Positions 5,583 to 31,218 of a stretch of DNA of 34,595 bases are shown piece by piece. Each line of letters opens with the position of its first letter. Position 1 is the first letter of the stretch. The notes under the pieces were generated by a model, which did not search any database, had not been told where the DNA came from, and was given only the letters and a program-made list of their open reading frames with translations. Source of the DNA: an uncultured Clostridia bacterium (lineage in GTDB: Bacteria > Bacillota > Clostridia > Lachnospirales > Lachnospiraceae); NCBI GenBank assembly GCA_947088195.1, contig CAMUFS010000001.1, positions 1 through 34,595 on the forward strand, in the 5' to 3' direction. A program made the translations under genes and the position numbers.

Positions 5583-6269
5583 ATGGCAGAAAAACGATAT
5601 ATCATATCCGATGCCTCGAAACAGGTAGATGTGGAGGCACATGTATTACGATATTGGGAAGAAGAGCTGGTTTTGGAGATCCCAAGGAATGAGATGGGGC
5701 ATCGTTACTATACAGATGAGAATATCAGGCTGCTAAAGAATATTAAGGAGTTAAAGGATCAGGGATTTCAACTAAAGGCAATCAAGATGGTTCTTCCAGA
5801 GCTGATTAATTCCGGGGAGTATAATTTGGATTATGTGCTTGGGCGCAAGGAGGAGCTGAATAATAAGGTTATGGAGGAGGAAGCAAGAGCTTCAAAGGAG
5901 GCGGAACAGAAAAAAGTGGAGAAGAAGGAAAAGCTTCCTGTCTGTGCGGAATCAAAGAGTGAGGTACATGCCACGGCTCCTATTGCGGAGGACAAGATCC
6001 AACAGTTTCAGGTTATTATGACAAATATTATGTCTCGTGCTCTGGCGGAGAACAGCTCGCAGCTTGGACAGGAGATCAGCGACAGAGTCAGTGAGAGTGT
6101 CCTGAAGGAGATGGACTATTTGATGCGGCTTCAGGATGAAAAAGAGGAACAGCGTTATAAGAAGCTGGATGAGATGATTCGCAGCTATCAAAAGGGAAGG
6201 ATGGAGGCTGCTGCGACATCGGAGAACCCAAAAAAGACAAAGAAGAAACGTTTTTTTAGGAAAGCATAA
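5583..6269 (+). CDS. MerR-family transcriptional regulator (N-terminal HTH, long charged coiled-coil C-terminus)
   Basis: The first ~70 aa match the MerR winged-HTH pattern (VLRYWEEE..., RYYTDENIRLLKNIKELKDQGFQLKAIK). SD AGGAGG upstream. No recognisable effector domain. Confidence 0.8.
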   Translation: MAEKRYIISDASKQVDVEAHVLRYWEEELVLEIPRNEMGHRYYTDENIRLLKNIKELKDQGFQLKAIKMVLPELINSGEYNLDYVLGRKEELNNKVMEEEARASKEAEQKKVEKKEKLPVCAESKSEVHATAPIAEDKIQQFQVIMTNIMSRALAENSSQLGQEISDRVSESVLKEMDYLMRLQDEKEEQRYKKLDEMIRSYQKGRMEAAATSENPKKTKKKRFFRKA

Positions 6270-6273
6270 GCAG

Positions 6274-6301
6274 CAGAGGGTGGACATGCCCTCTGTTTTT
6301 T
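6274..6301 (+). terminator. Rho-independent terminator after the MerR-family gene
   Basis: CAGAGGG (6274-6280) / CCCTCTG (6289-6295) followed by TTTTTT. Confidence 0.75.
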
Positions 6302-6348
6302 ATGTGTATGGCACTTTAAAAAGTATATTGTATTGAGTCATGTTTGGG

Positions 6349-6500
6349 GATGGTCCGCACAGAGAACCGCCTATAGTCCTCCGTCACCGCGCTCCCGCTT
6401 AGTGAAAAACGTAACGGACACTAAGCTCGATAATACCTCGCTAAGTGCCGACGTTTTTCAATAGGTTCCGTAGGACTATGGGCGGTTCTCTGTGCTGTTT
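6349..6500. repeat. Copy A of a ~150-nt repeat whose core (6357-6495) is a 139-nt rod-like hairpin
   Basis: The 24-nt arms GCACAGAGAACCGCCTATAGTCCT (6357-6380) and AGGACTATGGGCGGTTCTCTGTGC (6472-6495) are complementary except for one T:G. The 91-nt interior has further internal pairing (GAAAAACGT/ACGTTTTTC). Confidence 0.9.
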
Positions 6501-6680
6501 TATCGGTAATGTGAGCATAATAGTAGTTGGTTTTATGGACTTTTTTGAAAATAGTGATAGAAAGATTTGGAGATAATAAAGGAAACAAATGGATAGAGCG
6601 ATGAGTAAAAAATAGTTTATAATGTCTTAAAGGTGAAGATATTGAGGGGGGTTAATAATAACATGTGTGGAATACCAAAA

Positions 6681-6832
6681 AAGCAGCACAGAGAATGACC
6701 TATGGTTCTACGGAACCTATTGAAAAACGTCGGCACTTAGCGAGGTATTAGCGAGCTTAGTGTCCGTTACGTTTTTCACTAAGCGGGAGCGCGGTGACGG
6801 AGAACCATAGGTCATTCTCTGTGCGGACCATC
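6681..6832. repeat. Copy B of the same repeat, in inverted orientation (hairpin core 6686-6824)
   Basis: The interior 6710-6800 is the reverse complement of 6381-6471 with a single mismatch (90/91). The arms GCACAGAGAATGACCTATGGTTCT / AGAACCATAGGTCATTCTCTGTGC are perfectly complementary. Outer flank GGACCATC mirrors GATGGTCC at 6349-6356. Confidence 0.9.
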
Positions 6833-6934
6833 TTCAAAAATAACACAAAAAGGTTCTATTTTATTATATATCAGAATATACTGTTAAAGTGTGTGTTTAA
6901 GATGTAAATTAGTAGTGCAGAAATGGGGAGTAAT

Positions 6935-7549
6935 ATGGAAATACAGGAAAAAGAGGAGAAACTTCTATATCAGAAGCTTACTTCTGAGGAGTTTATGGCA
7001 GATAGAAGGGAAGCAATTCGCTTTGTCAAAGAGTTTTTGTGGGATTGGAATCTGAAAGAACAGATACAGCAAAAGCGTATGCCTTTGAAAGCAGTGGAAG
7101 GACGGATTAAAACGCCGGAAAGTATTATAGAGAAGCTTAGAAAAAAGGGATATATGATTTCATTGAAGGGTGTGGAGCAGCTTCATGATCTGGCTGGCGT
7201 GCGTGCTGTGTGTAGTTATCTGGATGATGTGTACAGACTGAAGGAGTATATTGTGACATCAAAGAAAGTACAAGTATTGTCACAGAAGGATTATATCGCT
7301 TTGCCAAAAAAAAGTGGTTATCAGAGCTTGCATTTGCTTTTAAAGACGAGAACAGGTTTGGTAGAGCTTCAAATTCGGACGGTTGCGATGGATTATTGGT
7401 CTAATTTGGAGCATCCAGTTATATATAAGAAGGGGATTTATGCAGATGAAAAAGTGGGAAGAGAGTTAATAAGGTATGCCAGATTTTTAAGGGAAGTAGA
7501 TGGTATGTTAGTGGCGCTTAGAATGGAACGAGAAAAGCGTGTCAGATGA
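6935..7549 (+). CDS. Small alarmone synthetase (RelQ/RelP-like GTP pyrophosphokinase, RelA_SpoT domain only)
   Basis: Synthetase motifs are present: GRIKTPESIIEKL, DLAGVRAVCSYLDDVY, SGYQSLHLLL, ELQIRTVAMDYWSNLEH. The ATG at 6935 follows GGGGAG; the track start is 6923. Confidence 0.85.
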   Translation: MEIQEKEEKLLYQKLTSEEFMADRREAIRFVKEFLWDWNLKEQIQQKRMPLKAVEGRIKTPESIIEKLRKKGYMISLKGVEQLHDLAGVRAVCSYLDDVYRLKEYIVTSKKVQVLSQKDYIALPKKSGYQSLHLLLKTRTGLVELQIRTVAMDYWSNLEHPVIYKKGIYADEKVGRELIRYARFLREVDGMLVALRMEREKRVR

Positions 7550-8697: not shown

Positions 8698-8943
8698 TTA
8701 CATGGATTGATGGAAGGTACGGGAGATAACATCGTTCTGTTGCTCTTTTGTCAGCTTAATAAAGTTTACTGCATAGCCGGATACACGGATGGTAAGCTGA
8801 GGATATTTCTCAGGATGTGCCTGTGCATCTAACAAGGTATCTTTATTTAATACATTTACATTCAGATGATGTCCACCTTTTTCTGCATAACCATCTAACA
8901 TAGAAACAAGGTTGTCGATCTGCTGCTCATTAACTGCTGCCAT
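8698..8943 (-). CDS. Stand-alone glycyl-radical domain protein (GrcA/YfiD-like; corresponds exactly to the missing C-terminus of PFL), 81 aa
   Basis: Contains ...[66 protein letters not shown] with the RVSGY radical glycine motif. A perfect SD AAGGAGG lies 8 nt before the ATG at 8943; the track start at 8967 has no SD. Confidence 0.9.
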
Positions 8944-29904: not shown

Positions 29905-29984
29905 AGATGCTTGCATTGCTCTGAGAAATGGGGTACAATGGTTGTTATCAATAGGCATATGTGTTGAGATTGGAGGGCGGATAT

Positions 29985-31208
29985 GTGGAATTAAAGTTTG
30001 ATACATCAAAGGAATATGGACTTGTTTTGGAAGGCGGCGGAGCGAGAGGGGCTTATCAGATTGGTGCATGGCGGGCACTTATGGAGGCAGGGATTCAGAT
30101 TAAGGGAGTTTCTGGCACCTCTGTGGGTGCGTTAAACGGTGCACTGGTATGTATGGGAGATCTGGAAAAAGCGGAGGAGGTCTGGGAAAATATTTCTTAT
30201 TCACAGGTGATGTCGGTCGAAGATGAGTTTATGGAGGGGATTATCAAACGTGATTTTAAGAAGATGGGTCAGGCAGAGGTTATCAAAAATTCTCTTCGTT
30301 ACCTCTCAAATGGAGGTATTGATGTGACACCGCTTCGTGAGCTGATTGCAAGTCATATTGATGAGAATAAGATCCGCTATGGAGATGTCGAGTTTTTCTT
30401 TCAGGTCTTTTCGGTGACAGGAATGCGCGAGCTTAATGTGGAAGCAAAGGAAGTACCGGATGGACAGCTTGCAGATATGGTGCTTGCAAGTGCGTATTTT
30501 CCCGTGTTTAAGAAAGAGAAAATCAACGGCAGCAGATTGATAGATGCAGGAATGTTTAATAATGTCCCTGTGGATTCGCTGGTGAATCGCGGCTATACAG
30601 ATATTATATCCATTCGTATCTATGGAATTGGATTAGAAAAAAAGGTGAAGCTGCCAGAGGAGGTGACAGTCACAGAGATAGCACCTCATGTAGAGCTGGG
30701 CAGCATCCTTGAATTTGATAATAAGAGAAGCCGCAAGAATATGACTATAGGCTATTATGACGCCATGCGTGTGTTATATGGGTTAAAGGGAAGAATATAT
30801 TATATTGACAGTGAGTTAGGAGAGCAGGAGTGTCTGGTCCGTTTTCTAATTCCAGCGGCAGAAAGCCAGAGATTTCTTGAGGAATATAGTTTAGAGCTGG
30901 AGAATGGAGCATCGCCCTACCGAGATATTTTGGAGAAGCTTCTTCCGGCAGTCGCCCAAGAATTAAAGCTTGAGAAAAATTGGAGTTATCAGGAGCTATA
31001 TCTTGCTATGCTGGAGGCATCTGCAAAGCTGTTGCGTGTTCAGAAATATCAAATCTATACAGAGGATGAGCTGCTTAGTGAGGTTAGAAGAAAATGGGAG
31101 GCAATGGCAGAAGAAAAAAGAGAGAAGCTACCTGATTTTGTGGAATATATTCTATCGACGGAGGAAGCAGGTGGACCGGCTATGAAAACCTTCTTAGAAA
31201 ATTTATAA
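29985..31208 (+). CDS. Patatin-like phospholipase family protein
   Basis: Oxyanion GGGARG, nucleophile elbow GTSVGA and the catalytic Asp context IDAGMF. The probable GTG start at 29985 lies 7 nt after GGAGGG; the track start is 29961. Confidence 0.85.
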   Translation: MELKFDTSKEYGLVLEGGGARGAYQIGAWRALMEAGIQIKGVSGTSVGALNGALVCMGDLEKAEEVWENISYSQVMSVEDEFMEGIIKRDFKKMGQAEVIKNSLRYLSNGGIDVTPLRELIASHIDENKIRYGDVEFFFQVFSVTGMRELNVEAKEVPDGQLADMVLASAYFPVFKKEKINGSRLIDAGMFNNVPVDSLVNRGYTDIISIRIYGIGLEKKVKLPEEVTVTEIAPHVELGSILEFDNKRSRKNMTIGYYDAMRVLYGLKGRIYYIDSELGEQECLVRFLIPAAESQRFLEEYSLELENGASPYRDILEKLLPAVAQELKLEKNWSYQELYLAMLEASAKLLRVQKYQIYTEDELLSEVRRKWEAMAEEKREKLPDFVEYILSTEEAGGPAMKTFLENL

Positions 31209-31218
31209 ATTTTTATAT

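Follow-up and report, generated by a model that had tools for sequence, protein, structure and literature searches.

A non-coding composite element with two inverted hairpin arms, present in hundreds of copies in mouse-gut Lachnospiraceae

Two long hairpins, inverted with respect to each other, stand between two genes of an uncultured Lachnospiraceae bacterium. Their interiors are almost identical and their outer stems differ but stay paired, which raises the question of what kind of element they form and whether their pairing is maintained at the level of DNA or of RNA. The window (the whole 34,595-nt stretch of DNA that we analyzed) belongs to the core chromosome of a low-GC Firmicute, and its genes encode CotH, a DEAD-box helicase, a MerR-family regulator, a small alarmone synthetase (SAS), and pyruvate formate-lyase (PFL) with its activase, and further MecA, HPr kinase, MurB, RapZ, WhiA, DnaE, and PFK. 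The hairpins lie between the MerR gene (5583 to 6269) and the gene for the SAS, which is of the RelA/SpoT type (6923 to 7549). Sequencing runs that contain the window sequence are mainly mouse-gut metagenomes, and contigs of MAG MGBC164205 (uncultured Lachnospiraceae bacterium) match two stretches of the window at 84.5% identity.

A repeat finder run on the window returned 32-nt inverted arms at 6357-6388/6464-6495 (88%) and 6686-6717/6793-6824 (91%), and a larger inverted repeat of 176 nt (89%) that pairs 6333-6508 with 6673-6848. A degenerate pattern of the stem matched four times in the window, against 0.00 matches expected. Both 139-nt units fold as long rods, with energies of -73 to -80 kcal/mol as RNA (z, -10.4 to -11.5) and -48 to -51 kcal/mol as DNA (z, -10.4 to -12.3). 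When copy A was aligned with the reverse complement of copy B, the interiors differed at 1 of 91 positions (CTCGATAAT versus CTCGCTAAT), and the outer stems had five differences, every one of which is mirrored in the partner arm. Repeat finding, alignment, and folding thus agree with the coordinates and counts that the original prediction gave for hairpins 6357-6495 and 6686-6824, and the covariation of the stems, which it had described for five positions, holds true of the whole family (86 copies). The homology between A and B extends past the 139 nt on both sides. An assembly artifact was ruled out as the source of this arrangement, since independent assemblies and Logan contigs show the same layout. 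The lone T:G of copy A is a strain-specific C-to-T change; three other strains (loci L007, L008, and L010) have C, which makes a perfect pair, and the change is therefore a recent point mutation.

Hairpins A and B are the left and right arms of one non-coding composite element of about 525 bp, at ~6328 to 6852 (Table 1). Its order is an outer end, a 139-nt hairpin, a T-rich inner flank, and an AT-rich center, followed by the mirror image. We recovered 106 full-length hairpins by blastn from 82 fetched loci and recorded the orientation of those lying within 1.5 kb of each other. Thirty-three neighboring pairs faced each other, none faced apart, and three were in tandem. The preferred gap between facing hairpins was 130 to 165 nt, and where the gap is longer, other small repeats nested in it account for the excess. 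Centers, inner flanks, and outer ends are homologous from copy to copy, the center of the window element having weak homology to the centers of the MGBC164205 copies. Outer sequence is kept for ~50 to 70 nt beyond the hairpins and begins with ATAACTTCTTGTA. What had been read as a pair of elements is instead, by the orientation counts and the homologous centers and outer ends, two arms of one. Hairpins without a partner are truncated composites, because part of the center is still present. In at least 25 of 32 MGBC164205 composites, one arm carries stem type I (GTCCGGCGAACTGCCTGTGGTCCT) and the other stem type II (GTATAGCCAGTCTGCTGTTTTCCT).

The composite shares several traits with MITEs. At ~525 bp it lies at the upper end of the sizes in PMC3184786, and no ORF of at least 60 amino acids runs across its center. 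Terminal inverted repeats are present, in the form of the 176-nt arms with 89% complementarity, and ATAACTTCTTGTA stands at both ends of copies. A covariance model built in this analysis scored hairpin A at 163.5 bits and hairpin B at 161.6 bits, and these two were its only matches in the window. Inversion of a hairpin interior between its own stem arms was considered and rejected, as the orientation of the interior relative to the flanks is constant.

Table 1. Features of the composite element and of related sites, in window coordinates
Feature	Position	Strand	Basis or remark
Intrinsic terminator of the upstream MerR-family gene, outside the element	6272..6297	+	Conserved in sister species
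Left outer end	6328..6356	+	Conserved outer ends among copies; sister species read ...AATTATA^GTTCTATTTT without the element; left boundary uncertain by ~3 nt (ATA at 6325-6327 may belong)
Hairpin module A, "+ form"	6357..6495	+	Outer stem of 24 bp, 6357-6380 with 6472-6495
Most conserved family core (CGCTCCCGCTTAGTGAAAAACGT)	6390..6412	+	5' side of asymmetric internal loop and helix 2
Helix 2, 3' side (GACGTTTTTCAATAGGTT)	6449..6466	+	Near-invariant in the family; 6450 is A or G
Arm A inner flank, T-run right after the stem (TGTTTTATCGGTA)	6496..6508	+	
AT-rich center	6509..6672	no strand	No ORF; no RNA contigs on the center
Arm B inner flank (TGCTTTTTTGGTA on the minus strand)	6673..6685	-	
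Hairpin module B, inverted	6686..6824	-	Outer stem, 6686-6709 with 6801-6824
Right outer end	6825..6852	-	Sister-species homology starts again at 6853 (GTTCTATTTTAT)
Deletion remnant of another copy, 50 nt (outer end, 5' stem arm, CCTCCGTC)	31157..31206	-	Alignment

The order of the MerR and synthetase genes is shared by three sister lineages, in which the spacer is only 186 to 243 nt long and contains no element. Alignment of the filled with the empty sites puts the insertion between ...AATTATA and GTTCTATTTT, and this sets the extent of the window element given above. Orthologous sites in congeneric species thus differ in whether they carry the element, so that the insertion here postdates the divergence of these species. 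In locus L007, from a 95%-identical strain, an additional ~38 to 54 nt separate the MerR terminator from the element (~1010 to 1050, equivalent to window ~6305 to 6320), and this insert carries a short palindrome (TGTCACTAGGTGACA). A search for strain-level empty sites, in which contigs of other metagenomes were mapped to the window and to locus L092, gave only cross-mapping between copies.

The deletion remnant elsewhere in the window (Table 1) provides the last codons and the stop codon of a patatin-like ORF (29961 to 31208). Its join to the 3' end of that ORF falls within a short ACGGAGG-like microhomology. At this patatin-OTC site, full elements are present in L103, L104, and L113 (two sister species), the window has the remnant, and the outgroup L110 is empty, with a 107-nt spacer. 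Positions 31190 to 31210 were also considered as an empty site with an AT or TTATAA duplication, and this was rejected, since they hold the remnant, which shares the right junction by descent.

All 25 composites for which both flanks could be scored are intergenic, and their flanking genes are tandem in 18 cases, divergent in 4, and convergent in 3. No target-site duplication was visible at the one clean filled/empty site, and no direct repeat of at least 3 nt recurred at the flanks of 14 complete copies. A possible 2-bp AT duplication has the same letters as the palindromic ends. The five bases outside the ends are non-random, with consensus AAAGT and position -4 never G or C among 59 ends; the flank consensus of the insertions (AAAGT|ATAAC) is weak.

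In Logan contigs of four metagenomes, flank depth was ~4 to 20 and summed hairpin depth ran into the thousands. The element/flank depth ratios in four unrelated metagenomes, at 90% identity or more, were ~405, 404, 413, and 524. A ratio this constant across samples argues that the hairpin copies belong to this genome, and the summed metagenome depth suggests ~400 to 500 hairpin cores per genome. In the MGBC164205-type sister species, the core/flank ratio was ~150 to 300. A scan of one genome per species found at least 82 loci with a 20-mer from the core, most of them from MGBC164205 and others from the uncultured bin CAMWWW01 and from Ca. Fimimorpha excrementavium. In Ca. Fimimorpha, two facing hairpins 70 nt apart have the same core and entirely different stems, and these two copies score 60 to 68 bits with the covariance model. 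Genomes in a group of mouse-gut Lachnospiraceae carry the element in hundreds of copies.

Contigs from many samples break within the hairpins, and public assemblies with an identical MerR protein nearly all stop within copy A. In loci L001 to L011, this bacterium's public short-read assemblies end within hairpin A or B in nearly every sample. Core patterns had no match in viral contigs, and blastn gave no match for the window element against plasmids and phages or for an MGBC164205 copy against plasmids. The terminal pattern GCACAGAGAA..TTCTCTGTGC was also tried in viral contigs and rejected, as it hit only high-GC CACAGAG palindromes without a covariance-model match. These are 124- to 143-nt palindromes of CACAGAGGCACAGAG-type repeats in high-GC contigs (L012, 11529 to 11671; L013, 846 to 969; L014, 4599 to 4726); their only likeness to the window stems is in the CACAGAGAA ends, and the covariance model shows no relationship. 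A literature search returned no match to the core sequences and nothing relevant on MITEs and Lachnospiraceae.

Is the pairing of the stems maintained across the family? The consensus structure of 86 non-identical hairpins has 48 pairs, and both sides have changed in 28 of them. Cells are paired at 97.2%, versus 84.5% after shuffling, and two-sided changes occupy 622 cells, versus 222; none of 500 shuffles reached the observed values. When the partner was slid by 1 to 3 columns, pairing fell to 34 to 42%. Two-sided changes affect 19 of the 23 outer-stem pairs. Covariation in the stems, and with it the general proposal that a hairpin structure is maintained, is therefore supported by the family as a whole.

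The other parts of the hairpin hardly vary. Helix 2 (GCTTAGTGAAAAACG with CGTTTTTCAATAGGT) and the 15-nt asymmetric loop that precedes it are nearly free of variation, and the family core (CGCTCCCGCTTAGTGAAAAACG ... CGTTTTTCAATAGG) barely varies even across species, the stems being the variable part everywhere. Segment 6390 to 6412 has the highest depth, without common variants, and its columns are invariant in the 86 copies. Collecting the copies with an exact 20-mer from the core makes that segment look more invariant than it is; the 3' partner strand of the core, which was not used in the search, is equally invariant. The 99% likeness between the A and B interiors reflects the near-invariance of this part throughout the family and across species, and not a fresh duplication. 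The original prediction had read this identity as a sign of recent duplication with which the stems were in conflict; that conflict disappears, as the interior is almost invariant in every copy.

Mismatches found in only one or two copies comprise 21 G:T, 18 A:C, and 20 of the transversion type. They are strand-symmetric, with the ordinary transition bias and no G:U bias. This symmetry indicates that resident copies decay neutrally and that neither strand shows RNA-type wobble tolerance. The T:G of copy A, which the original prediction noted would be a wobble only in a plus-strand RNA, is no evidence for such an RNA, being a young mutation in a family whose rare stem mismatches are symmetric. 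Fully compensated rare stem variants, including C-G to G-C swaps, number 17 against 59 rare mismatches, and independent mutation predicts well under one. Compensation fits both pairing-constrained source copies, whose descendants would inherit paired stems, and arm-to-arm template switching, and does not separate the two.

We think it likely that the hairpins are the structured arms of long terminal inverted repeats, and that they belong to one non-autonomous element of ~525 bp that is MITE- or foldback-like and has the layout of a REPIN. In this scenario, an enzyme encoded elsewhere would make new element copies from source copies. The enzyme or process would need the invariant core (the asymmetric loop and the GTGAAAAACG/CGTTTTTCA helix) on a paired stem of free sequence, and the arm would most likely fold as a DNA hairpin or cruciform during mobilization. 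If only source copies with intact pairing propagate, the stem changes of their descendants would look compensated, and the inserted copies would then decay neutrally. Template switching inside the palindrome arm may speed the compensation; in quasipalindromes, such switching converts imperfect inverted repeats towards perfect ones (PMC7202029). As a side effect, the inward hairpin with its T-run, which is terminator-like, would shield the center and the neighbor genes from read-through.

It is unlikely, in our judgment, that the hairpins act primarily as RNA, either as a structured noncoding RNA family or as terminators or 3'-end stabilizers useful to the host, with selection on RNA folding. 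Such a role would agree with the very stable RNA fold and with the T-runs. Runs of at least four T occur at 64 of 98 inner flanks versus 17 of 98 outer flanks, and 10 nt on the inner side, read from outside to inside, hold 6.1 T on average versus 3.3 the other way. The pair of hairpins with T-runs looks like putative intrinsic terminators facing each other. It also counts for an RNA role that some 2-kb metatranscriptome contigs run from genes into a hairpin and that other bacterial MITEs act at the RNA level (PMC3184786). However, the mismatch counts above (21, 18, and 20) reveal no G:U tolerance on either strand. Each strand of the composite has one "+ form" and one "- form," so that a read-through RNA cannot use both arms, and convergent gene pairs are not in excess among the flanking genes (18 tandem, 4 divergent, and 3 convergent).

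The RNA signal itself is low. In three metatranscriptomes, the MerR gene had a depth of 27 to 38 and all hairpins summed had 380 to 640, which is ~10 to 17 times one gene although the DNA copies are at ~400 times. Per copy, the hairpin signal is about 1/30 of that of the modestly expressed neighbor gene, and DNA carry-over could account for it. No RNA contigs fell on the center and outer ends of the window copy, although assembler contigs cannot show absence or transcript ends. A comparison with Rfam, which the original prediction had put forward, gave no family match at the gathering score for the window and 16 composite loci. A DNA-level or inherited constraint is favored over an RNA gene because there is no G:U bias, the RNA signal is low, and Rfam has no match.

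A second alternative dispenses with selection on structure. A copying process, such as intramolecular template switching or the correction of mismatches within a hairpin extruded during replication, would keep the arms alike, and the covariation would be a mutational by-product. We doubt this reading, which leaves two things unexplained: that the unpaired 15-nt loop and helix 2 are near-invariant while the stems vary freely, and that a distant genus has the same paired layout with unrelated stems. In its favor is the excess of compensated rare variants (17 against 59 mismatches, where independent mutation predicts well under one), but these may be unsampled small subfamilies. Mismatches without an RNA-type bias also agree with it, and template switching is documented for imperfect inverted repeats (PMC7202029). 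Such copying could act alongside selection rather than in its place.

A third alternative is that the hairpins are structure-specific sites of recombination, recognized in folded single-stranded form by an HUH or tyrosine enzyme, much as in REP/REPIN with RAYT or integron attC with IntI; this would make the composite a giant REPIN-like replicator in Firmicutes. The odds seem to us to be against it. The layout is that of REPINs, namely, inverted palindromes with a spacer, compensatory changes, and decayed singlets (PMC3116915). The free stem sequence, fixed pairing, and invariant asymmetric loop are attC-like, and no target-site duplication is visible. On the other hand, no RAYT, IS200-type, or integrase gene lies beside the sampled copies, the units are ~5 times longer than REPs, and the conserved outer ends with the terminal inverted motif ATAACTTCTTGTA are absent from REPINs and attC. 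A bolder reading along these lines, to which we likewise assign a low probability, makes the hairpin module (stem of free sequence, invariant asymmetric loop, and GTGAAAAACG/CGTTTTTCA helix) a structure-specific DNA site that some enzyme would read in folded single-stranded form, the composite a new class of hairpin-dependent replicator in Firmicutes, and the junction TACAAGAAGTT-AT-AACTTCTTGTA the site of strand exchange. The logic of such a replicator would be like that of attC/IntI or REPIN/RAYT, with a sequence unrelated to both.

Two further alternatives are very improbable. If the 176-nt repeats flanked an inverton controlling the downstream alarmone synthetase gene, as inverted repeats on both sides of a short AT-rich stretch directly upstream of a gene might suggest, the other orientation of the center should be seen, but it occurs in 0 contigs of eight metagenomes; moreover, the center has a constant orientation relative to the arms in ~30 composites with distinguishable arms, there is no promoter-like site in the window center, and the element occurs in hundreds of copies in all gene contexts. 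Two chance neighboring insertions of a 139- to 176-nt MITE in opposite orientation would fit with each hairpin having its own terminal inverted repeats and folding alone, but they are effectively refuted by the orientation counts (33 facing versus 0 apart, at spacings of ~130 to 165 nt), by the homology among copies of the sequence between and outside the hairpins, and by the part of the center that solo hairpins carry.

The search for a mobilizing enzyme gave no candidate. Across ~565 kb of sampled loci, no ORF resembling a transposase was recurrent beside the copies, and no autonomous insertion sequence with the same ends was found there. The window has no transposase, and a scan of 20 window proteins gave no integrase domain. 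No sampled copy has a RAYT, IS200-type, or integrase gene beside it, and no RAYT candidate was recurrent or flanked by the repeat. The view that no ORF or transposase is tied to the element is thus borne out for both the window and the sampled loci. ORFs of at least 90 amino acids were clustered across the loci as transposase candidates and rejected, since the clusters held only ordinary paralogues and one spurious ORF across a hairpin. The start of an ISL3-family transposase gene in L025 (~1640 to 2000) was rejected as well; it has its own GGCTCTTTG inverted repeat and no shared ends. This gene start lies ~480 nt from a solo hairpin.

The ends of several copies abut an inverted, degenerate terminal motif, giving TACAAGAWRTT-AT-AAYTTCTTGTA, sometimes within a 37-nt extension. 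This conserved extension (GGGGCTGTTGCATTAAGAAAAACCTATACAAGATATT) is present at ~10 ends (L018, L024, L042, L059, L067, L071, L079, L082, L086, and L090). The extension repeats part of the terminal region in inverted orientation, which makes the end a palindrome centered on AT. Targets that resemble the joined ends of the element would fit an enzyme that pairs like sites, candidates being a site-specific recombinase or an IS30-like transposase. The IS30 family prefers palindromic AT-rich targets and its own ends, and its abutted ends lie 2 bp apart. This preference may resemble the TACAAGAWRTT-AT-AAYTTCTTGTA junctions beside several copies. Neither an IS30-type transposase nor a matching inverted repeat was seen here.

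We file the element as a new variant of the MITE/REPIN kind, outside the named families. REPINs are REP doublets that form hairpins and are mobilized by RAYT transposases (Bertels and Rainey 2011, PMC3116915). As in REPINs, an inverted palindromic doublet with a short spacer is the replicating unit and singlets are decayed doublets, and as in REPINs there are hundreds of extragenic copies in which compensatory hairpin changes are common (PMC3116915). The differences are that the arms are 139-nt rods with an invariant asymmetric core rather than palindromes of ~20 to 35 nt, and that the element is ~525 to 630 bp long, has extra conserved outer ends, and lives in a Firmicute host, with no RAYT found in the sampled loci.

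The kinship with MITE-type elements suggested in the original prediction was right. Like bcr1 of the Bacillus cereus group and MITEs of the Correia, ERIC, and YPAL type, the element is non-coding, multicopy, and intergenic, with terminal inverted repeats and long stem-loops (PMC3184786), and compensatory base changes are likewise reported for bcr1 (Delihas 2011, PMC3184786). However, those elements are single hairpins of ~100 to 170 bp that make defined target duplications, of 5 bp in bcr1 (PMC3184786), whereas the present element has two hairpins, one per arm, with differing stems and no clear duplication; it is by these descriptions that we set it apart. Typical bacterial MITEs are smaller and simpler than this element, with its ~525 bp and its arms of ~180 nt.

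Two other systems share single features with it. Integron attC sites are likewise imperfect palindromes, up to ~140 nt long, in which structure is conserved, stem sequence is free, and a few asymmetric unpaired features are fixed. Unlike attC, the present units are inverted pairs, without R'/R'' core motifs, integrase, cassette ORFs, or direct-repeat arrays, and a search by eye of the stem bases for GTTRRRY/RYYYAAC gave no fit. PATEs derived from IS200/IS605 also have hairpins just inside their ends and no visible target duplication. However, IS200/IS605 ends are not mutual inverted repeats and their hairpins are on the same strand, whereas the present element is symmetric, with inverted arms. 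The earlier idea of an IS200/IS605-type element does not fit this layout, with its inverted arms and terminal inverted repeats.

If the depth estimate is right, the element family makes up ~3% of the genome in several uncultured mouse-gut Lachnospiraceae. This figure is our own estimate, from ~200 to 250 composites of ~550 bp in an assumed genome of 3 to 4 Mb. The family is a main and systematic reason for the breaks in short-read assemblies of these MAGs. Its hundreds of copies per genome are a natural data set, in which a 24-bp stem that is free in sequence and fixed in pairing stands beside an invariant core. With it, what reads a DNA hairpin during Firmicute transposition becomes directly testable. 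The inward design of hairpin and T-run suggests a stop to transcription in both directions wherever the element inserts. This would matter for the expression of neighbors, which at this site are the genes for the MerR-family regulator and the alarmone synthetase.

Other small repeats and genes were seen at the same loci. A second repeat of ~105 nt (TGCCTGCTAAAGCAGGCGGATGG...CCCGCTGAAGCGGGCAGATGGGAGTTAG; L097, 2258 to 2375, and also L098 and L102) lies in this same spacer between the MerR and synthetase genes of the MGBC164205-type species. Nested copies of it stand in L037, L040, L060, and L068, in apical parts of hairpins and in composite centers. A third repeat of ~250 nt (AATCATGCCGATGCACTAATTGTTCAGTCGGCAATTTGAGTCAGAGC...; L103, 1735 to 1990; L096, 780 to 1030; and the spacer of L042) stands upstream of an ornithine carbamoyltransferase gene and inside another composite. 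These genomes have several nested families of small repeats. At L001, 2217 to 2462 (equivalent to window ~8698 to 8943, minus strand), a separate gene, of 81 residues and with a glycyl-radical domain, lies between the gene for the PFL-activating enzyme and the full-length PFL gene, and its product is like a spare-part glycyl radical protein.
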